Shown here: positions 1 to 16,772 of the stretch, in pieces
How the letters are laid out: each line of letters starts with the position of its first letter
Position numbering within the stretch: the first letter of the stretch is position 1
Source of the DNA: a virus
Length of the DNA stretch: 19,421 bases
Virus genome (UHGV): UHGV-1602873
Reading direction: 5' to 3' (one strand)
Made by a program: the position numbers and the translations under genes
The notes under the pieces: model-generated
Databases searched by the model: none
Seen by the model: only the letters and a program-made list of their open reading frames with translations
What the model was told of the DNA's origin: nothing

Positions 1-15
1 TTTGTTGACTTCCAT
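1..15 (-). CDS. Start of a Nu1-like terminase small subunit gene (first 5 codons only; continues off the window)
   Basis: Reverse complement of 1-15 is ATGGAAGTCAACAAA (MEVNK), identical to the first codons of the Nu1 gene at 15379; upstream context (16-30) also matches the Nu1 ribosome-binding region of the second copy. Confidence 0.45.
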
Positions 16-240
16 TGTTCATTCCACGGACAAAAACAGAGAAAGGAAACGACAGAGGCCAAAATGCCCGTTTTCAGCGCCTGTCATTTCCTTTCTTTTC
101 AGGGGGTATTTTAAATAAAAACATAAAGTTACGGCGAAGAAGAACGGAAATGCCTTAAACCGGAAAATTTCCATAAATAGAGAAAAACTGCGCGCCTGAC
201 GCCCCGTAGCCTGTCAGATCGCCGGAAAGGACCCGCCAGC
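16..240. other. cos site of the island (cos2): cosB-like region, cosN-equivalent 12-mer at 193-204, cosQ-like flank 205-238
   Basis: Position-for-position alignable without gaps to 15380-15600 (the lambda-type cos); the 12-nt cohesive-end equivalent reads cgcctgacgccc versus aggtcgccgccc in cos1 (5 of 12 differ); flanking R-site-like blocks mostly conserved. Confidence 0.6.
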
Positions 241-260: not shown

Positions 261-644
261 TCAACCAATCAGCTTATAGCGACCATCCCGTGCATTGCGG
301 CGTACACGCTCAATCTTGAGGCATAGCGCCGCATCTGGCTTTTTTGGGACAGGTACGCGGCAATATTCAGAAGCGCGAGGAATATTATTTATCCAGTCGA
401 TCACTTCACTTAAATACCAGGCCTTACGCCCTTCCGTAACCTGCACACGCTCCGGGAACTCTCCACTAGCCTCAAGGTTTAGCAGTGTACGCCGACTCAG
501 GGTTGTAATTTCCATCACCTGATTCATATCAACAAGGCGCTCGCTTAAACACATTTTGTCAGCGATAGCTTTTAATTCCTCTACAGCTGGATTCGGGTAC
601 ATCATTTCGGCAATTGGCTTAAGGTCATTGTAATCATTCTGCAT
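261..644 (-). CDS. AlpA/Xis-family winged-helix DNA-binding protein (127 aa)
   Basis: Segment ITTLSRRTLLNLEASGEFPERVQVTEGRKAWYLSEVIDWI matches the AlpA/excisionase-like fold signature (GxFP, W..SEV..WI); strong SD (AAGGGGGA) 5 nt upstream; start follows the upstream stop codon within ~15 nt. Confidence 0.7.
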   Translation of the reverse strand: MQNDYNDLKPIAEMMYPNPAVEELKAIADKMCLSERLVDMNQVMEITTLSRRTLLNLEASGEFPERVQVTEGRKAWYLSEVIDWINNIPRASEYCRVPVPKKPDAALCLKIERVRRNARDGRYKLIG

Positions 645-655
645 TGTATCCCCCT

Positions 656-997
656 TTACACACGAGCCAGCGGCTGAACAGAAATACCTGAGCCAACAAA
701 TGCTGCAATCTTTACTGACAGTTCTTTTACAGACTCAGGCCAGTTCAGAGCATCAACATTTAAGACACCTGTCTTATAGACCTGAGCCTGTGTTTTTTTC
801 GCGGTGTCGATTTGTACAGCGGAAACATAAACCGCTTTACCTACGCTCGAACCATCCCATACCACCAGTGCACCTGTTGCATCTTCCTGCATCAGTGGCG
901 TAAATGCAGGAATTACCCCTTTATTAGCTGAAAATATCCCCAGCGTAGTCACCAGTGCTTCAGTGCCAGCCATGAGTTCAGTGTAATGAGTAGCCAT
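656..997 (-). CDS. Head decoration protein, lambda gpD family (113 aa)
   Basis: C-terminal half aligns with lambda D (LVVWDGSSVGKAV..YKTG..WPES..AAFVGSGISV versus [31 protein letters not shown]); divergent from the gpD at 9491-9823. Confidence 0.8.
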   Translation of the reverse strand: MATHYTELMAGTEALVTTLGIFSANKGVIPAFTPLMQEDATGALVVWDGSSVGKAVYVSAVQIDTAKKTQAQVYKTGVLNVDALNWPESVKELSVKIAAFVGSGISVQPLARV

Positions 998-1006
998 TGC
1001 TCCCCC

Positions 1007-2047
1007 TTAGCCAATGCGAACGGTAACAAAACGATTGATGCGGGCCGGTATTGGCTGTGGTGCTGAATGTGTCTGCACATATTCAATAGCCGGATCACCA
1101 GGCACAATATAGTTTTTCGGTGCAAGTTCGGCTTTAGTCAGCCCCATTCGGATTAGCTCCGGATCCTGAATACCGCCATAGGCGACAATCCCCTGAAGAG
1201 CCGTATTGCCAAGCACCATCAAATCAGGATCAAGGAAATGTTTTTCTGTTCCGTCCTCGTCGGTATAACGCCCGCTGTAAACAACAATCGCAACATCGCC
1301 CATATACCCTTTAAAACTCACCGAATCACCAAGGTCTTTAAGGGCCGTTTCCAGTTCGGAATTAGAACCACGACGGGTATCCAAAGCCTCTTTTATCGCT
1401 CTGAATGAACGGTATTTCTTCCATACATTACCACCCATAATGATGATATTAGTGACGCCCTCACTAAATTCTGCGTAGCTCTCAATATCATCATTTGGAT
1501 CAAAAGTTTCTTTATCCTTACCTGACCACTCAGTACCGCCAGACTGAGTGATGATATTTTGTGGTTTTATATTCCAGTCCAGCTCATAACGTTCAATACC
1601 ATCGCCCTCAATGATATTTTTCCCCGTTGTGATTGCCTGAACAGCAAGCCATTCAATACGTGCACGAATAGCTTTAGCCTGATTTACAATCGCCTGTTTA
1701 ACTTTAATATTACGCGCCCCAAAAGCATTGTATTGCTCAGGTGACACACCAGCAGGGCGCACAGCTAACTTATTTGGATCAATGCTGCTTTTCGGCTTCA
1801 TATAGCCTGGACGAATTGTTTTTGATTCGTACCCTTCGTCACGTGAAACTTTACTACCCACCATAGGAGAACAAAACGCTGCAATTGGGATATTTGGATC
1901 GTCGATTGTATCAAGAATAATATCGCGCGATTCAAACATTACCGAGCGAGTAAAAAACAAACTGGTAAACAACGCATTTAGTTGTTTTTGTACATCTACA
2001 GCATTAACTACCTGTACAAGCTGAGTAGGCGAATATAAATCAACCAT
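1007..2047 (-). CDS. Major capsid protein, lambda gpE family (346 aa from MVDLY start)
   Basis: Full-length homology to lambda E, strongest centrally (ITQSGGTEWS, DTRRGSNSELETA, GDVAIVVYSG, VLGNT); AAGAGGA SD upstream of ATG at 2047; the 71-codon N-terminal extension of the raw ORF is not used. Confidence 0.9.
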   Translation of the reverse strand: MVDLYSPTQLVQVVNAVDVQKQLNALFTSLFFTRSVMFESRDIILDTIDDPNIPIAAFCSPMVGSKVSRDEGYESKTIRPGYMKPKSSIDPNKLAVRPAGVSPEQYNAFGARNIKVKQAIVNQAKAIRARIEWLAVQAITTGKNIIEGDGIERYELDWNIKPQNIITQSGGTEWSGKDKETFDPNDDIESYAEFSEGVTNIIIMGGNVWKKYRSFRAIKEALDTRRGSNSELETALKDLGDSVSFKGYMGDVAIVVYSGRYTDEDGTEKHFLDPDLMVLGNTALQGIVAYGGIQDPELIRMGLTKAELAPKNYIVPGDPAIEYVQTHSAPQPIPARINRFVTVRIG

Positions 2048-2263: not shown

Positions 2264-2713
2264 TTAAAACGGGATATCATCTCCCCATTGCTCATTATCT
2301 CCCTCTGGTGGCTGGCTTCCTTGCTGATCTGCCTGTTGTTTTGCTCTGTTCAGTGCGTCAGTAGCCTGCCCCTGTTGGCCTTTTTTGCCGCCCGGTCGCA
2401 CCGATCGCGCACTGATTACGCTGTCTGCGATAACCTGCCAGCCCTGCCGCGTTTCGCCGTTCTGTCCAGTCCACTGGCTCATCTGCATGTTACCCGCCAC
2501 GCTCAGGAGTTCGCCTTTGTGATGCTTTGCCAGCGCGTCGGCTTGTCTGCCAAACGCCAGGACAGATAACCACAACGTCGCCAGACCGTCATCCGACTGA
2601 CTGCAGGGCAGTGATACCGCCATACGCGCCAGCGTCATGGGGGTGCCCTTGCTGGTCTGTTTTGTCTGCGGGTCGTCCACCAACCGCCCGTAAACTGATA
2701 TTTGCGCCGTCAT
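2264..2713 (-). CDS. ssb: Single-stranded DNA-binding protein (SSB)
   Basis: OB-fold-like N-terminus (ISVYGRLVDDPQ..., LSVLAFGRQADALAKHHKGELLSVAGNMQMSQWTGQNGETR), Gly/Gln-rich linker and C-terminal acidic tip ending DDIPF, as in E. coli SSB. Confidence 0.8.
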   Translation of the reverse strand: MTAQISVYGRLVDDPQTKQTSKGTPMTLARMAVSLPCSQSDDGLATLWLSVLAFGRQADALAKHHKGELLSVAGNMQMSQWTGQNGETRQGWQVIADSVISARSVRPGGKKGQQGQATDALNRAKQQADQQGSQPPEGDNEQWGDDIPF

Positions 2714-2967
2714 GCTGCCTGCTCTCCGGACTTAATATTGATTGTTGTCACTTCCTCCGCTTCAGCAATCTCCCGTTCGGTCAGCGTGGCAAAGTTTGCA
2801 GCCGCCGTTGTCATGAATGCGCTTATCAGTTCGGGATGTGCTTTCGCGTATCCTTCCCCGGCGTTGCGGTCTATTGCCTTAATCGCCACCCTTAGCCAGT
2901 GTTCAGCCATATCAAGGGCGCGGTAATGTGGCTTTATATGTTTGTTCAGTTTTCCTGATGTGTGCAT
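2710..2967 (-). CDS. Hypothetical small protein (85 aa; possible internal start giving ~66 aa)
   Basis: ORF overlapping the ssb start by 4 nt (coupled); no recognisable motif. Confidence 0.45.
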   Translation of the reverse strand: MHTSGKLNKHIKPHYRALDMAEHWLRVAIKAIDRNAGEGYAKAHPELISAFMTTAAANFATLTEREIAEAEEVTTINIKSGEQAA

Positions 2968-3012
2968 TTTTATTTTTACCCCCTCGTTTAAAAAGTTTTT
3001 TGTGCACCACCA

Positions 3013-3245
3013 CCTTGTCTACCTTGTCTACCTGATTAGTTATCAGGCCAGTAATGGCGCGGGTTTCAGGGAGGTAGACAGCCCCAAATAGCTGTCTACC
3101 TCATCTCTACCCGTCTCCTTACCTGTCTACAAAAATGGGTAGATAAGGTAGATAACAGGTAGACAGTGAAAAATAGTTATCTACCTGCATTAATACATTG
3201 AAATAAAAGTATTTTCTTTCAGTCAGGTAGACAAGGTAGATAACC
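3013..3245. repeat. Iteron array, putative replication origin
   Basis: At least 10 copies of GGTAGA(C/T)A(A/G) in both orientations: tandem ttgtctacc x2 (3015-3032); 12-bp perfect inverted repeat gaggtagacagc/gctgtctacctc (3071-3082, 3091-3102); ggtagataa x2 (3138-3155); caggtagacag (3157-3167); caggtagacaaggtagataacc (3224-3245); AT-rich stretch 3189-3222. Lies immediately 3' of the primase-helicase gene. Confidence 0.65.
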
Positions 3246-3256
3246 ATTGCCATTTT

Positions 3257-5008
3257 TTATAAAAACGCATCGCAATCATCAGTAGTCGTTGCGTTGGTCT
3301 GCGTGACTCCCTTAACTTTTCGCGTAATATATTCATATCCGTAAACTTTCGCCGCTGACCTCATAGCCTTTCCGAACTCATTCACGCTCAAACATTTCCC
3401 CTTTCCTGTGTATGCCATGAAGGCCATATAGACACGGTAAAGGCTGTTTCTGGTCGTGTACTTCACGGTGTCACCACCACCGCCCATCATTAGCCCACGA
3501 GCTTCCTCCAGAAACTCCAGCGCCGCGCAAAGCTCAACAACCGGATCCGTTTGCTGCTTTATTGCCAGAGCTTCATCACCGTCACGCTGTTCCAGTAATA
3601 AAGCCCGTGCCTTTTCAGGGTCAGCAAAATTAGCCAGCAAGCGGCGGATAATTACGGGGATTTCTGCCGCTATCTTTTCCGGTAATTCCTTGTCTTTTTC
3701 GTCCTCCCTTACAATGTTGTCGAACCGGAAAATCACCCGACGGCGTGACACACCTCCGGCCCGTTCGGTAAAGATCATCGGGTCGTTATTGGTTGCCAGT
3801 ACCACCGCTCTTATTATCGTCGTGAATCGCTTCTCATATTTCGGGTTAATTTCAACGGGATCGCCTCCCGTGATTTTCTTGATGCCCGTGCCTTCCCCCG
3901 TATATTTCGGCTGATCGGCAAGGACGATAAGACGACTCCCGACAACCTGCGCGCGCCCTCCTGCATCATCGAGTGATGTCATCTCCGCGCTTACGGTGTT
4001 CTGTTTGCCAGCAAGCAGGGTGGCAATATGGGTAAATGTACTCTTACCGCTTCCCCCGTCTCCGGTGGCCTCAATGAACATCTGCCAGTCGTAGCGGTTC
4101 GCCATAATCATGTATAACGCGGCACATATACGCATCATCTTGCGCGGGTCTTTTCTTGCAGCATGTTCAAGCCATTTATGGAAATTTGGCGCATTATCGC
4201 GGATGTTTTCCCCTGCTACTGGTGGCGTGTACTCAATGCCATTGTGCGTGGTGCTCCAGTGCTCCGGCGAGTGCGGAGAAAATTCCCCCGTTTTCAGGTT
4301 AAGCACACCATTAGTGAACGGTAGCAAATCACCGGACGGCTCCCCCATGGGGTCGGCAATAACTTTTAACGCTTCCACGGCGTTATTGATTACACGTTTG
4401 CTGAACGTGGCCCTGTGCTCTGAATAGATCGCCACCATTTCGCGGCTCAGCTCCATTGTGCTGACCGGACACCATACCCCGCCGCGCCATACGTGGACGA
4501 TTTCACTTTCTGCATGAACACACACACCATCAAAGCGATCGGCAAGTAGTTGTGCACGTTCACTGTCTGCCATCTGTGAAAGTTGCGCCTTTTGCTTCGT
4601 CGGAAGATTAAGCACCAGACTTTCCCCACGCTCGCATTCCTCTTTGAGTCGCGGCAACTGCTCGGATAAATCCACTGGGCTGGTGTCAGTAATCCCCGCG
4701 TATTCGTGTACGGTCTTCACTCCAGCCACAGCCAGTAACGTAACAATCTGCGTCATGCTGTGCTCTGTGATATGTCCTGCGCGGTAAACACGCACACACT
4801 GACGATCTTCATCAATGATCCGGTAATCGGTGATATTTTTCAGTTGCTCATCAGCCAGCACGACAGGCGGCACATCGTCAGCGGCAATATGTTTACCCGC
4901 CCATTCCCGCCACTCTTTCGCATGGCTCCACGCATCACTACCTGCAAAGATGATTACCTCTGTCAGTCTGTCGCGTGGCTGTTTTTTTAAGTTCGGTGCC
5001 AGTTTCAT
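3257..5008 (-). CDS. Replication initiation primase/helicase (phage/plasmid primase, D5/P4-alpha NTPase family), 583 aa
   Basis: Walker A GDGGSGKST, downstream hydrophobic-D motif (LIVLAD); size and position after int-alpA as in P4-like and PICI elements; SD AGGGG upstream of ATG at 5008. Confidence 0.85.
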   Translation of the reverse strand: MKLAPNLKKQPRDRLTEVIIFAGSDAWSHAKEWREWAGKHIAADDVPPVVLADEQLKNITDYRIIDEDRQCVRVYRAGHITEHSMTQIVTLLAVAGVKTVHEYAGITDTSPVDLSEQLPRLKEECERGESLVLNLPTKQKAQLSQMADSERAQLLADRFDGVCVHAESEIVHVWRGGVWCPVSTMELSREMVAIYSEHRATFSKRVINNAVEALKVIADPMGEPSGDLLPFTNGVLNLKTGEFSPHSPEHWSTTHNGIEYTPPVAGENIRDNAPNFHKWLEHAARKDPRKMMRICAALYMIMANRYDWQMFIEATGDGGSGKSTFTHIATLLAGKQNTVSAEMTSLDDAGGRAQVVGSRLIVLADQPKYTGEGTGIKKITGGDPVEINPKYEKRFTTIIRAVVLATNNDPMIFTERAGGVSRRRVIFRFDNIVREDEKDKELPEKIAAEIPVIIRRLLANFADPEKARALLLEQRDGDEALAIKQQTDPVVELCAALEFLEEARGLMMGGGGDTVKYTTRNSLYRVYMAFMAYTGKGKCLSVNEFGKAMRSAAKVYGYEYITRKVKGVTQTNATTTDDCDAFL

Positions 5009-5304
5009 TTTTTGCCCCTGAATGCGTTAATCATGCTTTTCATTTTCTGGATGTTTCCCCGCGCTTTTTCCCTGCTGATGGGCTTACTGCGGGGTGCGGC
5101 ATATACCAGGGAAAAATCACGCCGGAACTGATAAACAGGCATCACGCAGTCATAGCTATACCCCTCACGGCGGTAAGTGATGCGCCGTTCTGCCACGCCT
5201 TTAATCGTTACCGTGCCGCCGTATTTATCGCGGTAAATATCGCCGTTCATAAATTCAGGCCGAGCGGGGCCGCTGGCAATAAAGCCAGAATTTTTCATTT
5301 CCAT
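5005..5304 (-). CDS. Hypothetical protein (99 aa), translationally coupled to the primase
   Basis: GAGGAA SD; stop overlaps the primase ATG (ATGA overlap). Confidence 0.55.
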   Translation of the reverse strand: MEMKNSGFIASGPARPEFMNGDIYRDKYGGTVTIKGVAERRITYRREGYSYDCVMPVYQFRRDFSLVYAAPRSKPISREKARGNIQKMKSMINAFRGKK

Positions 5305-5321
5305 ATTATTTATTCCTCGAC

Positions 5322-5543
5322 TTAACTCGACTTATTTGATAGCAGGGCACTATTTATTGCGTCATTGAGTTTTTCTGCTGATTCATCAATAAGTGACAAC
5401 AGGCCATAAGCAATATTTGCATCTTCATTGTCATTTATGCAATCAAGCCACATATTTAATATTGCTTTTGCTGAATTATTTAAAGTTAATGAACTTTCTG
5501 CACATGCTAACAATTTAAAAAAGACTTCCCGTTCTGTATTCAT
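5322..5543 (-). CDS. Hypothetical small protein (73 aa)
   Basis: AT-rich ORF; start abuts the stop of the upstream gene. Confidence 0.45.
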   Translation of the reverse strand: MNTEREVFFKLLACAESSLTLNNSAKAILNMWLDCINDNEDANIAYGLLSLIDESAEKLNDAINSALLSNKSS

Positions 5544-5735
5544 TTAATCCCCCACCAGCTTACTTTCTTCCTCAATGAGGAAACTAGCGACACTTCCCGA
5601 AAGGCGCGCCAGTAGGCTCGCCAGCGCGGATATATCAGCATCTGTAATTTTGTTCGGATATACCTCAAGAAGGCGGCAAATAATTTCTGTCTGGTGCGCA
5701 CGTTCAGCGGCTTCGTGTAATGTGATTTCCTGCAT
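5544..5735 (-). CDS. Hypothetical small protein (63 aa)
   Basis: Start codon overlaps the stop of the upstream ORF by 1 nt. Confidence 0.45.
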   Translation of the reverse strand: MQEITLHEAAERAHQTEIICRLLEVYPNKITDADISALASLLARLSGSVASFLIEEESKLVGD

Positions 5736-5920
5736 TAATGCACCTCTTTTAATTCATACACTGCTGAAATAATGACTTGTGATAAGCCATATTCTGATGA
5801 TTCGCTTCTCACCGCAGCAATAGCCGTCTGAACATTAACAGCCTTCACATTCTGAGCGATACCAATTGTGTGGCCTATTGGGTTAACAGCTCGGGCAAAT
5901 ACACGGAAGGTTTTAAGCAT
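5735..5920 (-). CDS. Hypothetical small protein (61 aa), first gene of the operon leading to the primase
   Basis: GGGAG SD 6 nt upstream of ATG; competes with a plus-strand ORF starting at 5919, so the call is tentative. Confidence 0.4.
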   Translation of the reverse strand: MLKTFRVFARAVNPIGHTIGIAQNVKAVNVQTAIAAVRSESSEYGLSQVIISAVYELKEVH

Positions 5921-6201
5921 GACTCACTCCCTGGCGGATTTTTGCAGCGAATACAGCAACACAACCGGACGGGCAACGGCTACGCGCTTCGCGTTCCGTC
6001 CAGGCGGTTACGTGGATGATTTGAGATTCTCCGGCACTCAGTGCCAGAAAACGCCACACAAAGGCCGTTTGTGTGTGTACAAGGTGTGGTATATGATTTA
6101 CAGCAACCATAACGGCTCCTAGTTTACGTTGTTGGTTAGACGCCCCGTATGTGTTCCCAGCACTGCGGGGCGTTGCTCTTTGTATTTCAACAATCCTTTC
6201 G

Positions 6202-6279
6202 GTGTGTTTCATGTTATGAGCGCATGAAACACACGTCAAGGCTTTTTGTATTTCTTTTTTTGTGTATACTGAAACACAC
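6202..6279. promoter_or_regulatory. Operator-like repeats overlapping a leftward sigma70-like promoter in a divergent control region
   Basis: 12-bp perfect inverted repeat gtgtgtttcatg/catgaaacacac (6202-6213, 6223-6234) plus a third copy gaaacacac (6271-6279). On the minus strand, TTGACG (6234-6239), 17-bp spacer, TAACAT (6211-6216) form a promoter whose -10 and spacer sit inside the repeats. Confidence 0.5.
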
Positions 6280-6300
6280 CGATGATTAGGAGTTTCAGAA

Positions 6301-6606
6301 ATGGCAACGGCTAACAAAAACGCAAAATCACAACTGACAACTGTCAGAGTCCCACTAGATGTTATGCAAGGGATGGAATCCGTTAAGCTGGACGGTGAAA
6401 GCAATGCCGGATTTATCGTAACCGCCATGCGCGGTGAAATCGCCCGCCGCCAGGCAGAAGGAAGCGGAGAAAATCCCCTCGTGTCTTCACTGGATGCCTT
6501 AGCTAAGGTCGAACAAATCGGTATCAAGGCAGCGGAGGAAATCGGGCAACTCGTAGCCGTCGCTCGTGAAGAACTCCAGCGGCGTAAAGCCAAAGAATCT
6601 GAATAA
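6301..6606 (+). CDS. Hypothetical protein, candidate regulator (101 aa)
   Basis: AGGAG SD 8 nt upstream; charged helical C-terminus; transcribed divergently from the small-gene/primase operon, next to the operator repeats. Function not recognised. Confidence 0.6.
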   Translation: MATANKNAKSQLTTVRVPLDVMQGMESVKLDGESNAGFIVTAMRGEIARRQAEGSGENPLVSSLDALAKVEQIGIKAAEEIGQLVAVAREELQRRKAKESE

Positions 6607-6956
6607 TTAGTATCAGCGCCGTGATGTGAGTAACTACGGCGCATTGCTATGTAAATACTGGCAATAAACAGAAAAGGTAGTTCTACTCCGAATAATTTTA
6701 TCTGACACTACTCCTGAACTAACATGCGCTTATCTTACAGGATATAAATATAAATCCATAAAATCACGATTAAATAAAGTCGCTCCAAACATAAACCACA
6801 CCCAACGCTTAACAAGATAGCAACAAACAGGTAAATAACTTGCAGAAATATTTATCGCAAGGATTATCATTATTAATGACAAATCACTTTACCAAGTCAT
6901 TCCCCTCTCTTATCATAAAGAGAAAGTAATAAATAAGTTAAGGGAGTTAGAATGCT

Positions 6957-7493
6957 ATGAATCTAAAAAAAATAGCCACAAACACAAAAAACAAGATAAC
7001 AGAAACATTTAATAAACTTATATTAGAGGCATCTAAAACCCCCACACAAGATGAAATTAAAATACTTGAGAGAAGGAGTAAGAAGTTTAATTACTCCTTT
7101 TTCTCATACGCAGTCACAGGAGCTATAATAGTTTTTTGCTCTCAACCATTAATTAAATACGCAAACCCAATACTTATTTTATTGAGTGGTCTGTTACTGT
7201 CTATCATCATTATCATTCTCAGAATGATTTATATTTCACAAGCGAATGCATCATGGACAACCAAAAAACGCTCACATGTACTAGTTCATTTTCTTTCTGC
7301 ATGTTTCATAGCATCAACATTGACGTTGCTATATCAGGCTTACGATAATAACATCACACACAAATTGTACTGTAAAAATATACAACAACTTATTGAAAAA
7401 AGGATAGAGACAGAAAAAAACATCAGCATATTCAGTGGGATGCAATGCACCCCGGTATATGATTACTCTTTATTTGGATTTAATCTCTTATAA
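6957..7493 (+). CDS. Small membrane protein (178 aa, about three predicted transmembrane segments) in an AT-rich cargo segment
   Basis: Hydrophobic stretches FFSYAVTGAIIVFCSQPLI, ILILLSGLLLSIIIIILRMIYI, VLVHFLSACFIASTLTLLY; AGGGAG SD; Lys/Asn/Ile-rich codon usage unlike its neighbours. Confidence 0.6.
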   Translation: MNLKKIATNTKNKITETFNKLILEASKTPTQDEIKILERRSKKFNYSFFSYAVTGAIIVFCSQPLIKYANPILILLSGLLLSIIIIILRMIYISQANASWTTKKRSHVLVHFLSACFIASTLTLLYQAYDNNITHKLYCKNIQQLIEKRIETEKNISIFSGMQCTPVYDYSLFGFNLL

Positions 7494-7502
7494 AGAATGT
7501 TA

Positions 7503-7536
7503 TTACTGATTTGAGTACAAATTCTCAAATCAGTAA
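7503..7536. terminator. Hairpin between convergent genes (membrane protein and alpA), likely bidirectional terminator
   Basis: Perfect 13-bp inverted repeat ttactgatttgag/ctcaaatcagtaa with 8-nt loop, flanked by T/A-rich sequence on both sides. Confidence 0.55.
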
Positions 7537-7562
7537 TTCATAATATTTTATTCTGAGATAAT

Positions 7563-7799
7563 TTAAACTACCCACTCACCTCGAATCCATGCCTGCACTT
7601 CTGAAAGACGATATGCAACAGCAGTGGAACCAATCTTGATCCGCTTAGGAAATTTTCCTTCCTTCTCCAGCTTCCAGCGTGTGCTGTTCGCAAGAGTGGT
7701 TAGCTCCCGACATTCTTTCTCACGGATCATTCGGTCAATGTTAGGAATGTACTCCAGACCCTTTTTATCAACAATTGCCATTTTTTTCATGTTAACCAA
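7563..7799 (-). CDS. alpA: AlpA-family transcriptional regulator/excisionase-like protein (78 aa)
   Basis: Signature LEYIPNIDRMIREKECRELTTLANSTRWKLEKEGKFPKRIKIGSTAVAYRLSEVQAWI; overlaps the integrase stop by 8 nt. Confidence 0.85.
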   Translation of the reverse strand: MVNMKKMAIVDKKGLEYIPNIDRMIREKECRELTTLANSTRWKLEKEGKFPKRIKIGSTAVAYRLSEVQAWIRGEWVV

Positions 7800-9027
7800 C
7801 CTTTTGTTTGAGGATTGTCACTTTTGAATCAGCACCTGCGATGCTATTGAGATATGTAGTCCAGAGTTCCAGAGCATCCAGTTTTTTAGCCATAAACTTA
7901 CTCCGGTTGTAAACACCTGCCACGCCAGGTAGCGCATGGCCTAACAGTTGTTCTACTACATAAAATTCAACACCGAGATCACTTAGATGAGTAGATAGCG
8001 TTCTTCTAAGGTCGTGTAGTGACCATTGTTTTTCATGGCCCAAACGTTTACCGATTTTCCCCCCAATCTTGCTTACGCTTTCTCTAATTCGCAGACTTCC
8101 CAGCACATAACCAGTATGTTTTGTCTCTTCGTGAACATCCGTTACCCACTGTCGTAGAATTTCAGGTACTGGTCTGACGATTTCAACACCAGTTTTTGAG
8201 TGATCTTTTGGTACAGTCCAAACCCAACTTTCGAGATCCCATTCGCTCCATTCTGATAATCGGGCTTCACTCATTCGACATCCAAATACTGTACAAAGCA
8301 CAAACATTTTTCGCGTGTATTCAGACATTAGTTTTAAATCAGGCTCGACAAAAATTGCCTTCCAGAGCTGGCCGAGTTCGGCTTCATCCAGAACCCGATC
8401 CCGCTTACCTGCAATCTGCCCCACATCACTCATGCGCAAATCCTTTAAAGCATCACACGTCGCGTACTGGCGTACCCGACAAAAACGAAGAGCTAATTTA
8501 GTGTCAGAAAAAACATACGCCGCCATAACTGGTGCATTACGTTTAATTCGGTCAAAACAGTCCAGCCATTCATATAGGTGAGTGTCATTTACGGGCAAAT
8601 GACCGATATAGGGAAAGATATGCTTTCGAAATCTGCCAAGCGTTACAGCATGAGTTTTACGACGCACCTTACAGTAATTTTCATACCAGTAATTTAGTGC
8701 ATCCTCCACTGTAACCGGCTTTAAGCGTTCTTCAGCCTGAATCTTAATCTGGATACGCGGATCACGTTTGTCAGCCAACCAACCACGGCACTCGTCGCGC
8801 TTTTCCCTTGCCTGTTTGAGTGACATATCAGGATATTTACCCAACGTTAGCCAGACCGGAGCAGCCCGGCCACCTGCTAACCTGTAGAAGAAAACAAAGC
8901 TCACAGCCCCTTTAGTACTCACACGAATAGAAAGCCCCTTTCCATCAGCAATGGTGATCTGCTTTTCTCTGGGTTTCCCCAGATATCCTTTAAGCGCTTT
9001 GTCGCTCAGTTTGTTCTCGCCAGCCAT
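7792..9027 (-). CDS. int: Tyrosine site-specific integrase, P4 family (start chosen at MAGENK; raw ORF extends to 9078)
   Basis: N-terminal arm-binding-like region (KALKGYLGKPREKQITIADGKGLSIRVS...), catalytic box HDLRRT and C-terminal tyrosine in GVAGVYNRS. Confidence 0.9.
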   Translation of the reverse strand: MAGENKLSDKALKGYLGKPREKQITIADGKGLSIRVSTKGAVSFVFFYRLAGGRAAPVWLTLGKYPDMSLKQAREKRDECRGWLADKRDPRIQIKIQAEERLKPVTVEDALNYWYENYCKVRRKTHAVTLGRFRKHIFPYIGHLPVNDTHLYEWLDCFDRIKRNAPVMAAYVFSDTKLALRFCRVRQYATCDALKDLRMSDVGQIAGKRDRVLDEAELGQLWKAIFVEPDLKLMSEYTRKMFVLCTVFGCRMSEARLSEWSEWDLESWVWTVPKDHSKTGVEIVRPVPEILRQWVTDVHEETKHTGYVLGSLRIRESVSKIGGKIGKRLGHEKQWSLHDLRRTLSTHLSDLGVEFYVVEQLLGHALPGVAGVYNRSKFMAKKLDALELWTTYLNSIAGADSKVTILKQKVG

Positions 9028-9159: not shown

Positions 9160-9435
9160 CTACACGAAAGCCTCAGAAAGCCATGCTAAGTGCTTGGGTT
9201 TGACATATCCCGGCGTAAATTCAGAGGTGGAGCCGCCACGGGAACGGATAACCTCACCGGAAACAATCGGCGAAACGTACAGCGCCATGTTTACCAGTCC
9301 CGGAATTTGTGAGAGATAGACTTTCTCCGTGGTGAAGGGATAGCTCTCACGGAAAAAGAGACGCAGAAACAGCGGATCAAACTTAAATTTCTGCTCATTT
9401 GCCGCCAGCAGCTGGGCGGTTGTGTACATCGACAT
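9160..9435 (-). pseudogene. E: Truncated lambda-type major capsid gene E (first ~82 codons, then 9 unrelated codons and a stop)
   Basis: MSMYTTAQLLAANEQKFKFDPLFLRLFF...TPGYVKPKH matches the lambda gpE N-terminus as recalled; the frame then reads LAWLSEAFV-stop at ~9190-9160, next to the integrase gene. Confidence 0.85.
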
Positions 9436-11152: not shown

Positions 11153-14833
<3,681 letters not shown>

Positions 14834-14859
<26 letters not shown>

Positions 14860-15379
14860 TCAGCAACCCCGGTATCAGTTCATCCAGCGCGGCTGCTTTG
14901 TTCATGGCTTTGATAATATCCCGTTTCAGGAAATCAACATGTCGGTTTTCCAGTTCCGGAAAACGCCGCTGCACCGACAGGGGGATCCCGTCGAGAATAC
15001 TGGCAATTTCACCTGCGATCCGCGACAACACGAAAGTACAGAATGCGGTTTCCACCACTTCAGCGGAGTCTCTGGCATTCTTCAGTTCCTGTGCGTCGGC
15101 CTGCGCACGCGTAAGTCGATGGCGTTCGTACTCAATAGTCCCTGGCTGGAGATCTGCCTCGCTGACCTGCCGCAGTTCTTCAACCTCCCGGCGCAGCTTT
15201 TCGTTCTCAATTTCAGCATCCCTTTCGGCATACCATTTTATGACGGCGGCAGAGTCATAAAGCACCTCATTACCCTTGCCACCGCCTCGCAGAACGGGCA
15301 TTCCCTGTTCCTGCCAGTTCTGAATGGTACGGATACTCGCACCGAAAATGTCAGCCAGCTGCTTTTTGTTGACTTCCAT
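14834..15379 (-). CDS. nu1: Terminase small subunit Nu1 (181 aa)
   Basis: MEVNKKQLADIFGASIRTIQNWQEQGMPVLRGGGKGNEVLYDSAAVIKWYAERD... matches lambda Nu1. Confidence 0.95.
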
Positions 15380-15600
15380 TGTTCATTCCACGGACAAAAA
15401 CAGAGAAAGGAAACGACAGAGGCCAAAAAGCTCGCTTTCAGCACCTGTCGCTTCCTTTCTTTTCAGAGGGTATTTTAAATAAAAACATTAAGTTATGACG
15501 AAGAAGAACGGAAACGCCTTAAACCGGAAAATTTTCATAAATAGCGAAAACCCGCGAGGTCGCCGCCCCGTAACCTGTCGGATCGCCGGAAAGGACCCGC
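15380..15600. other. Lambda-type cos site (cos1): cosB, cosN with the 12-nt cohesive-end sequence at 15557-15568, cosQ-side flank
   Basis: Reverse complement of 15544-15578 reads ACAGGTTACG-GGGCGGCGACCT-CGCGGGTTTTCGC, i.e. lambda right end, cohesive end and left end joined. Confidence 0.85.
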
Positions 15601-16059: not shown

Positions 16060-16470
16060 ATGGATCAGGTAGTCATTTTTAAACAAATATTTGATAAAGT
16101 TCGAAACGATTTAAACTATCAATGGTTTTATTCTGAGCTAAAACGTCACAATGTCTCACATTACATTTACTATTTAGCCACAGAGAATGTTCATATTGTA
16201 TTAAAAAATGATAATACAGTGTTATTAAAGGGCCTAAAAAACATTGTGTCTGTCAAATTTTCAAAGGATAGGCATCTTATAGAAACGACCTCTAATAAGC
16301 TGAAATCCAGAGAGATCACATTTCAGGAATACAGAAGAAACCTTGCTAAAGCAGGAGTTTTTCGGTGGGTTACAAATATCCACGAACAAAAAAGATATTA
16401 CTATACCTTTGATAATTCATTACTCTTTACTGAAAACATACAGAGCACATCACAAATGTTTCCACACTAA
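16060..16470 (+). CDS. YbcV-like prophage protein (DUF1398 family), 136 aa from MDQVV start
   Basis: Resembles YbcV-type proteins of lambdoid prophages from memory; GGAAGG SD 8 nt upstream of ATG at 16060; AT-rich gene opposite in orientation to the lysis genes. Confidence 0.55.
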
Positions 16471-16772
16471 ACCATAACGTCCGGTTTCTTCTACCCCTGC
16501 ACCGGACTGGCTGACATGAAGAGCAACCCCGCGTTCAGTTGACGCGTTAATAACCCGGTGTGCATCGTTTTTGATTATTCCCGCACACTCACGCAGAAGG
16601 AATTCCCCGTCGGGCTACGGTCATGGTTAATGCGGGAATACGGCGACGATACAGCGCATGATGTGTCAGGCTTGAATACCTTTATCCGTTAAAAGGGATA
16701 TCAGTTAAGTTATCCCGTGCAGGGTATAAGCCATTATCAAGCCCCCCGTAGATAGGCTTTGTAATGACATCT

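Follow-up and report, generated by a model that had tools for sequence, protein, structure and literature searches.

The first 236 bp of the window, the 19,421-nt stretch of viral DNA analyzed here (UHGV-1602873), form a second, complete lambda-type cos site, cos2, whose predicted cohesive end differs at 5 of 12 bases from that of the helper prophage around it. Its surroundings indicate that cos2 is most likely the packaging site of a helper-embedded PICI of ~11 kb, of the "11capE" type, located in gene E of a lambda-like prophage. We consider it probable that cos2 is a working PICI packaging site and that its overhang is a tolerated allele of the satellite late module rather than the mark of a changed enzyme specificity; as far as sequence comparison can tell, the variant sticky end is most likely ordinary natural variation. 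The direct evidence comes from the anatomy of the site, the conservation pattern across cos sites, a census of alleles and the identity of the terminases. The elements of cos2 and the corresponding helper site are as follows.

1..236, minus strand: cos2, a complete lambda-type cos with cosQ, cosN and cosB, followed by the start of a Nu1-derived ORF; gapless 91% alignment to cos1, homology ending 2 bp past cosQ
228..234, minus strand: cosQ heptamer GGGTCCT, same as in lambda and cos1, at -30 to -24 from the overhang
205..227, minus strand: cosQ–cosN spacer of 23 nt as in cos1, with TACG at the top-strand nick; 2 changes (209 and 216), both at positions polymorphic in our survey
193..204, minus strand: predicted 12-nt cohesive end 5'-GGGCGTCAGGCG-3', with nick positions predicted by homology to lambda
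181..192, minus strand: cosN right flank (overhang positions 13–24), CGC at 13–15 retained; changes at 16, 18 and 24, all polymorphic in the survey
140..155, minus strand: R3-equivalent TerS-binding repeat AGGCATTTCCGTTCTT, corresponding to lambda bp 50–65 with a G-to-A change at bp 54 (R3 coordinates from PMC9026076)
80..95, plus strand: R2-equivalent repeat CCTGTCATTTCCTTTC, in the orientation opposite to R3 and R1
41..56, minus strand: R1-equivalent repeat TCTGTCGTTTCCTTTC, unchanged in cos1
15365..15600, minus strand: cos1, the helper prophage's own cos, with the overhang at 15557–15568 (canonical, GGGCGGCGACCT) and cosQ at 15592–15598

In the unexcised composite, cos1 and cos2 have the same orientation at a distance of 15,364 bp, and pairwise alignment of 1–236 with 15365–15600 (offset 15364) is gapless, with 22 mismatches. 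The original prediction correctly described this alignment as gapless but began it one base off, at 15366, and carried the homology to 240 instead of 236. It was exact about the 12-mers: 193–204 reads cgcctgacgccc (GGGCGTCAGGCG in lambda orientation) and 15557–15568 reads aggtcgccgccc, the reverse complement of the lambda cohesive end, and they differ at overhang positions 6, 8, 9, 10 and 12, with three further changes in the next 12 bases toward cosB (window 189, 187 and 181, overhang positions 16, 18 and 24). The claimed concentration of divergence on cosN also holds, as 7 mismatches fall within one 13-nt window (P ~ 0.003, random placement of all 22 mismatches). By segment, the mismatches number 0/45 in the Nu1 start and leader, 8/85 from R1 to R2, 7/62 from I1 to R3, 5/12 in the 12-mer, 2/23 in the cosQ–cosN spacer and 0/7 in cosQ. 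The flanks had been called nearly identical, which is true of cosQ (7/7) and the spacer (21/23) but generous for cosB, where 15 mismatches lie within positions 1–192 and the region is 92% identical to the helper's.

That cos2 is a second and complete lambda-type site, as had been predicted, is seen in each of its parts. GGGTCCT stands 23 bp upstream of the top-strand nick, as in cos1; cosN reads TACG|GGGCGTCAGGCG|CGC, retaining GGGCG at overhang positions 1–5, C11 and the CG pair next to each nick; and cosB has R3, an inverted R2 and R1 at lambda spacing, without an indel relative to cos1 over the 236 bp. We take the position of the R2 equivalent (80–95) from its alignment to the lambda sequence. 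The AT-rich interval between R3 and R2 (96–139, the expected region of IHF site I1) aligns to cos1 with 5 changes. In the repeat core, R3 and R2 of cos2 both have A for G (CATTTCC for CGTTTCC), and R1 has the lambda form; phages share the cos2 R3 allele, which occurs naturally in the cos sites of contigs with 98% identical Nu1. In L001, a 99.9% identical genome, the homology to the helper extends leftward by another ~40 bp, over ~13 codons at the start of Nu1, bringing its total to ~260–275 bp, in agreement with the "258 bp, 90%" of PMC10111431. Homology to phage cos sites thus starts 2 bp outside cosQ and stops ~40 bp into Nu1, borders that cover the functional cos and little else.

The island, ~11.3 kb long, interrupts helper gene E, and the lambda-like prophage lies on the minus strand. 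The features around cos2 are the following.

1..15, minus strand: start (five codons, MEVNK) of a chimeric ORF of 64 aa, derived from Nu1, that leaves the window (full ORF at L001 19821–20015)
261..644, minus strand: AlpA-family HTH gene, 127 aa (Pfam PF05930, E=7.6e-9; PDB 8c3t, AlpA, E=2e-9)
656..997, minus strand: gpD homologue, satellite late zone (Pfam HDPD; RefSeq annotation)
1007..2047, minus strand: gpE homologue, satellite late zone (Pfam Phage_cap_E; RefSeq annotation)
2264..2713, minus strand: SSB (annotation/Pfam)
3257..5008, minus strand: D5/DUF5906 primase (annotation/Pfam)
within 2264..9027, minus strand: DUF4222 and Icd-like genes of the satellite (annotation/Pfam)
7563..7790, minus strand: AlpA (annotation/Pfam)
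7792..9027, minus strand: tyrosine integrase (annotation/Pfam)
9190..9435, minus strand: helper major capsid gene E, N-terminal fragment on the attL side, severed by the satellite (C-terminal fragment at L001 17096–17884)
12934..14859, minus strand: helper A (gpA), intact, 641 aa, 633–640 of 641 residues as in gpA of other lambda-type prophages
14834..15379, minus strand: helper Nu1, intact, 181 aa (sequence and annotation)

The order of int–alpA, primase and replication genes and late zone, all on the minus strand, is that of a Gram-negative PICI, as is the length (about 10–20 kb in such elements), and the splitting of gene E into the fragments at 9190–9435 and L001 17096–17884 is that expected of an HE-PICI at the capE site. 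Annotation and Pfam searches found no terS or terL in the island. As the original prediction had it, cos2 belongs to the island and not to the phage and is adjoined by an AlpA-like gene: the stop codon of the 127-aa AlpA-family gene lies 26 nt from cosQ, and, whichever cosN allele a sister island has, the gene is inherited together with its cos. Beyond the left edge of the window, L001 continues with the 64-aa ORF, a pair of HEPN and DUF262 genes and, after these, the C-terminal fragment of E. In this ORF, only ~13 codons at the start are Nu1-like (MEVNKDQLADILG) and the remainder is unrelated and AT-rich; it is a hypothetical protein in RefSeq and has no Pfam match, and from its sequence the chimera looks like a scar of cos capture. 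The lack of an intact Nu1/A to the left of cos2, which had been proposed as a sign that the site is a relic, is real, this chimeric ORF being all that is there, but it does not refute function because the satellite would use the helper terminase in trans, and that enzyme is intact at 12934–15379.

Other features of the element and its host were seen in passing. The satellite encodes its own gpE and gpD homologues (656–2047, minus strand) while disrupting gene E of the helper; in EcCICFT073, the equivalent capsid and decoration genes are dispensable for transfer. Inverted and repeated motifs of the GGTAGACAAGGTAGA type lie just downstream of the primase gene (window 3015–3035 and 3172–3248), in a region that may be the satellite replication origin. 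Near cos1, the helper prophage has iss, a gene for a serum-resistance lipoprotein (16325–16618, plus strand, according to the annotation of a near-identical genome).

The island is essentially the same element as Eco567.11capE, the HE-PICI of E. coli NRG857c, with a length of ~11 kb, the same site in gene E and the same gene order, and its cos2 region matches NRG 857C at 100% identity. Tommasini, Mageeney & Williams (2023) pointed out that, where cos would be expected, element and helper share 258 bp with 90% identity (PMC10111431); the term "cosN" has 0 occurrences in that paper, and the difference of the overhang from that of the helper is unreported there. A close and well-studied counterpart of cos2 is cos1 of the E. 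coli PICI EcCICFT073 (Fillol-Salom et al. 2018, 2019; Murialdo & Feiss 2022), where gpE- and gpD-like genes are likewise followed by a lambda-like cosQ–cosN. Packaging there is by a lambda-type helper terminase in trans, as it probably is for cos2. In the details, EcCICFT073 is a mirror image: its cosN is canonical and equals the helper's, its cosB is unrelated and Rpp retargets TerS, whereas cos2 has a helper-type cosB, no detectable Rpp homologue and an overhang that differs from the helper's. EcCICFT073 cos1, its cos2 and helper phage 4 all have the canonical overhang, and the transduction experiments done with that element therefore do not bear on the variant allele. Carrying the helper's cos for packaging in trans is also the way of P4 with P2 and of SaPIbov5 with phi12 and phiSLT; the cohesive-end sequences of P4 and SaPIbov5 are, as far as is known, those of their helpers, whereas the cos2 overhang differs. 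Like the island, these cos-type satellites combine the lack of a terminase with a helper-type cos (PMC6092414).

The overhang has natural variants in phages as well, namely those of N15 and phiD326 (bp 9 and 12), Gifsy-1 (bp 8, 9 and 11) and mEp213/LLS (GGGCGGCGCGCT). The survey by Vahanian et al. in 2017 is said to be the key one on cosN variation. Compared with N15, phiD326 and Gifsy-1, cos2 has five changes instead of two or three, and one of them is at position 6; unlike the natural phage variants, its allele is also mainly borne by satellites and shares a replicon with a canonical cos 15.4 kb away. Published lambda-like cosN variants differ in the right part of the overhang only, with the left half, the CG pairs and cosQ conserved, and lambda terminase has shown no cosN specificity among the alleles tested (PMC4669245, PMC12315714).

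We scanned IMG/VR for cosQ and found ~100 new lambda-type cos sites among the matches listed. Among these matches, phage contexts mostly had the canonical overhang, and phages or satellites also showed ~10 other overhangs, GGGCGGAAGGCG, GGGCGGCGTCCT, GGGCGGCAGCGT and GGGCGACGTCCG among them. In a position-wise survey of 101 distinct lambda-type cos sequences, where positions -3 to -1 and 1–3 were fixed by the selection filter, variation concentrated at overhang positions 6, 8, 9, 10 and 12, at 16, 18 and 24 and in the middle of the cosQ–cosN spacer. Positions -4, 4, 5 and 15 were invariant, and conservation was 99% at position 14, 98% for C11 and 95% at position 13. All ten differences between cos2 and cos1 in the interval from -30 to +24 (-12, -5, 6, 8, 9, 10, 12, 16, 18 and 24) fall on positions polymorphic among the 101 sequences, and none on an invariant one.

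The exact variant 18-mer was present in 57 IMG/VR contigs, ~50 of them sister satellites and 3 of phage type (L012, L046 and L057). The sister satellites share the same late module of gpE-like, gpD-like and AlpA-like genes and have several cosB types and downstream genes. For an allele census we used the satellite side of the junction as the anchor and took every match, 92 in all, of which 90 were readable and 36 were E-embedded, with the following overhangs.

GGGCGTCAGGCG (variant): 50 of 90 readable, 31 E-embedded
GGGCGGCGACCT (canonical): 34 of 90 readable, 3 E-embedded
GGGCGGAAGGCG: 4 of 90 readable, 2 E-embedded
GGGCGGCAGACG: 1 of 90 readable, 0 E-embedded
GGGCGGCTGACG: 1 of 90 readable, 0 E-embedded

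Sequence of the cos2 type beside the AlpA-like gene was found in 408 of 5,426 complete E. coli genomes. The exact variant overhang had no match in 50,697 curated phage records, the best full-length matches being PhiR46_1 and YDC107_1, which have the overhang GGGCGGAAGGCG and lambda-type Nu1/A. A scan of GTDB (one genome per species) for the 18-mer ACGGGGCGTCAGGCGCGC gave 98 matches, none with cosQ upstream; these are chance matches in unrelated, mostly high-GC genomes. In the searchable literature, the variant 12-mer was not found in a cos context and matched unrelated primers only.

The sister islands differed in other respects. Many have a full-length terS directly after cos, with a matching non-lambda cosB; the product is Nu1-like with 72% identity in L003, L007, L020 and others and ~37% in L010, L015, L173, L178 and others, and L178 has its own terS and non-lambda cosB although the cosB of its resident helper is lambda-type. 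By analogy, this looks like the "own TerS" strategy of SaPIs. A rule that the island cosB always equals the cosB type of the resident helper was considered and rejected, being true for the window and L173 and false for L174 and L178. The islands have two cargo slots, one of them separating cos from the right attachment site and the other close to alpA, occupied by differing defense-type genes, such as DUF262 with HEPN, abortive-infection proteins and a TIR-domain protein (L001 18041–19757; L173 17895–18656 and 26127–26810; L178 26231–27106). A chromosomal relative of the satellite lies between clpS and cspD (L177 19346–39123, NZ_CP024815.1) in at least two tandem copies, one of which has frameshifted capsid and decoration genes. 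Chromosomal relatives also have a second cos-like site, inverted and a few hundred bp from the main one (~19119 in L175 and L177, ~19307 in L176, 3339 in L279), with a diverged overhang region in L175–L177, for example GGGCGGCGGTTA in L176; an inverted second cos-like site has likewise been reported as cos2 of EcCICFT073. We also considered an improved twofold symmetry of the cos2 nick flanks as a compensation, but the pattern was inconsistent across sister sites.

The three phage-type contigs allow the variant overhang to be compared with the terminase beside it. In L012, L046 and L057, Nu1 is 98–99% and gpA 99% identical to the helper's. The only complete gpA beside a variant overhang, that of L046, differs from the gpA of the window at 8 of 641 residues, seven of which are also found in phages with the canonical overhang; the private change, S269G, lies outside the nuclease region. 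As the variant, canonical and GGGCGGAAGGCG overhangs all stand beside near-identical terminases, these enzymes appear with at least three different right halves of cosN. Experiments on lambda agree with this tolerance: changes at bp 7–12 had no measurable effect on cos cleavage, TerS at R3 positioning TerL, and G2C was harmful while its symmetric partner C11G was silent (Feiss et al. 2015, PMC4669245). In natural phages, variation is found at overhang positions 8–12 (N15, phiD326 and Gifsy-1) and spares cosQ, the left overhang half and the CG pair beside each nick (PMC4669245). The shift in packaging specificity that the original prediction had suggested from the divergence of cosN is thus unsupported, since the changed bases are at naturally variable positions, bp 7–12 are immaterial to cleavage and terminases 98–99% identical to the helper's are found beside the same overhang.

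A course of events consistent with these observations would start with excision and replication of the satellite, upon which the helper terminase would act in trans. Nu1 would bind R3, R2 and R1, and gpA would nick 12 bp apart at the positions homologous to those in lambda, with packaging stopping at the next usable cos via cosQ. The packaged satellite DNA would then carry self-complementary 5'-GGGCGTCAGGCG ends, and four island units of ~45 kb in all would make a lambda-sized load, similar to that shown for EcCICFT073 (PMC6092414). Because Nu1 at R3 positions the enzyme, bp 6–12 would not be read strictly by a lambda-type terminase, and as the five changed bases lie within this loosely read segment, the different overhang would be a tolerated allele. 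The nick positions, cleavage and packaging at cos2 and the neutrality of its changes are what we infer from this evidence.

In favor of a tolerated allele, every constrained cos element is kept and the differences are found only at naturally polymorphic positions; the island has no detectable Rpp homologue, which fits its helper-type cosB. Other observations fit less well. The exact overhang was found in 3 phage-type contigs against ~50 satellite contigs and in no curated phage record, and its use by a phage terminase therefore rests on predicted prophages. Excision and replication of the element were seen in the source strain, but neither virions nor transfer were detected (Tommasini et al. 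2023, PMC10111431). G6T, the sole overhang change outside the bp 7–12 to which the cited cleavage data apply, falls at the margin of the left half-site, and R3 and R2 each have a G-to-A change, that in R3 being known from phage cos sites.

One could alternatively suppose that the embedded satellite keeps sticky ends that are unable to pair with the helper's, as an adaptive private overhang. Such ends would block the end-to-end joining of satellite and helper after injection, as well as the circularization of chromosomes cut from cos2 to cos1, which would, given the published 61-kb composite, be ~46 kb long and have mismatched ends. The helper had the canonical and the satellite the variant overhang in all six readable pairs (the window, L001, L173, L174, L178 and L044 with L093), and satellites often have the variant allele, which phages have rarely or never and which is in the majority among E-embedded islands (31/36), its 12-mer persisting while the flanks on both sides are shuffled. 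The predicted duplex energy is about -9 kcal/mol for an island end with a helper end and about -19 kcal/mol for cognate ends, and a mismatch of 2 bases already lowers the viable yield ~4-fold (PMC4669245); poor heterologous joining is thus expected, with only weak annealing between satellite and helper ends. The shift in end compatibility that had been proposed is to this extent a fair physical inference, but the observations do not require that it was selected: 3 of the 36 E-embedded sisters have the canonical overhang and 2 a third allele, and as the integrases of the E-embedded islands are 99–100% identical, the shared allele may be plain inheritance by descent. EcCICFT073 moreover transfers well with the same overhang as its helper (PMC6092414), and the cos2-to-cos1 product would lack head genes anyway. 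We therefore regard adaptive private ends as unlikely, and selection for the private overhang of the family as a cis-level device of insulation or interference, acting by overhang sequence alone, as quite improbable.

It is similarly quite unlikely that cos2 is a decaying, nonfunctional relic of a captured phage cos in which the cluster of cosN changes marks lost function. The changes are indeed concentrated at the cleavage site, the adjoining Nu1 remnant is truncated and the source strain gave no detected virions (PMC10111431). Decay, however, would not spare all constrained positions, avoid indels over 236 bp and end at the borders of the functional cos, and the same 12-mer is found in ~50 viral-database contigs and among the alleles of the cos2-type sites in the 408 E. 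coli genomes. The island also occurs in different prophage backgrounds, with lambda-type and non-lambda-type cosB, which argues for continuing mobility. Very unlikely, finally, is the analogy-based idea that the variant cosN requires an island-encoded, Rpp-like factor retargeting the helper terminase, the candidate being the AlpA-like protein beside cosQ: its 127-aa winged-HTH gene always adjoins cos in this satellite family and Rpp is a precedent for an island protein redirecting lambda terminase (PMC6739421), but the same protein (95–100% identical) accompanies canonical, variant and other alleles, phage contigs have the variant overhang without it, and a helper-type cosB makes retargeting unnecessary. 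No specificity factor was found by PDB search with the AlpA-like protein, which gave no RppC match, by Pfam on ten island proteins or by tblastn with CFT073 RppA as the query, whose matches in the window and the island were only noise (E>=5.9); no rpp gene was found directly downstream of cos2, where the ORF is the 64-aa Nu1 chimera, and the cos2 cosB, at 92% identity, is not unrelated to the helper's as in Rpp-class elements.

The element and the kind of variation were already known, and cos2 reveals no new packaging mechanism; the new detail is a five-base overhang allele, common in this family of satellites, that differs from that of the embedding helper. In practice, tools for predicting cos ends and phage termini that assume GGGCGGCGACCT will miss such sites. 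cos2 mirrors the well-studied Rpp system, in which cosB changes and cosN is kept, and is a natural counterpart to the experiments with mismatched ends by Feiss et al. (2015). The census documents that the lambda-type cohesive end is polymorphic at overhang positions 6–12, and that a widespread family of E. coli satellites has at least five cosN alleles, the commonest of which differs from its helper at 5 of 12 bases.
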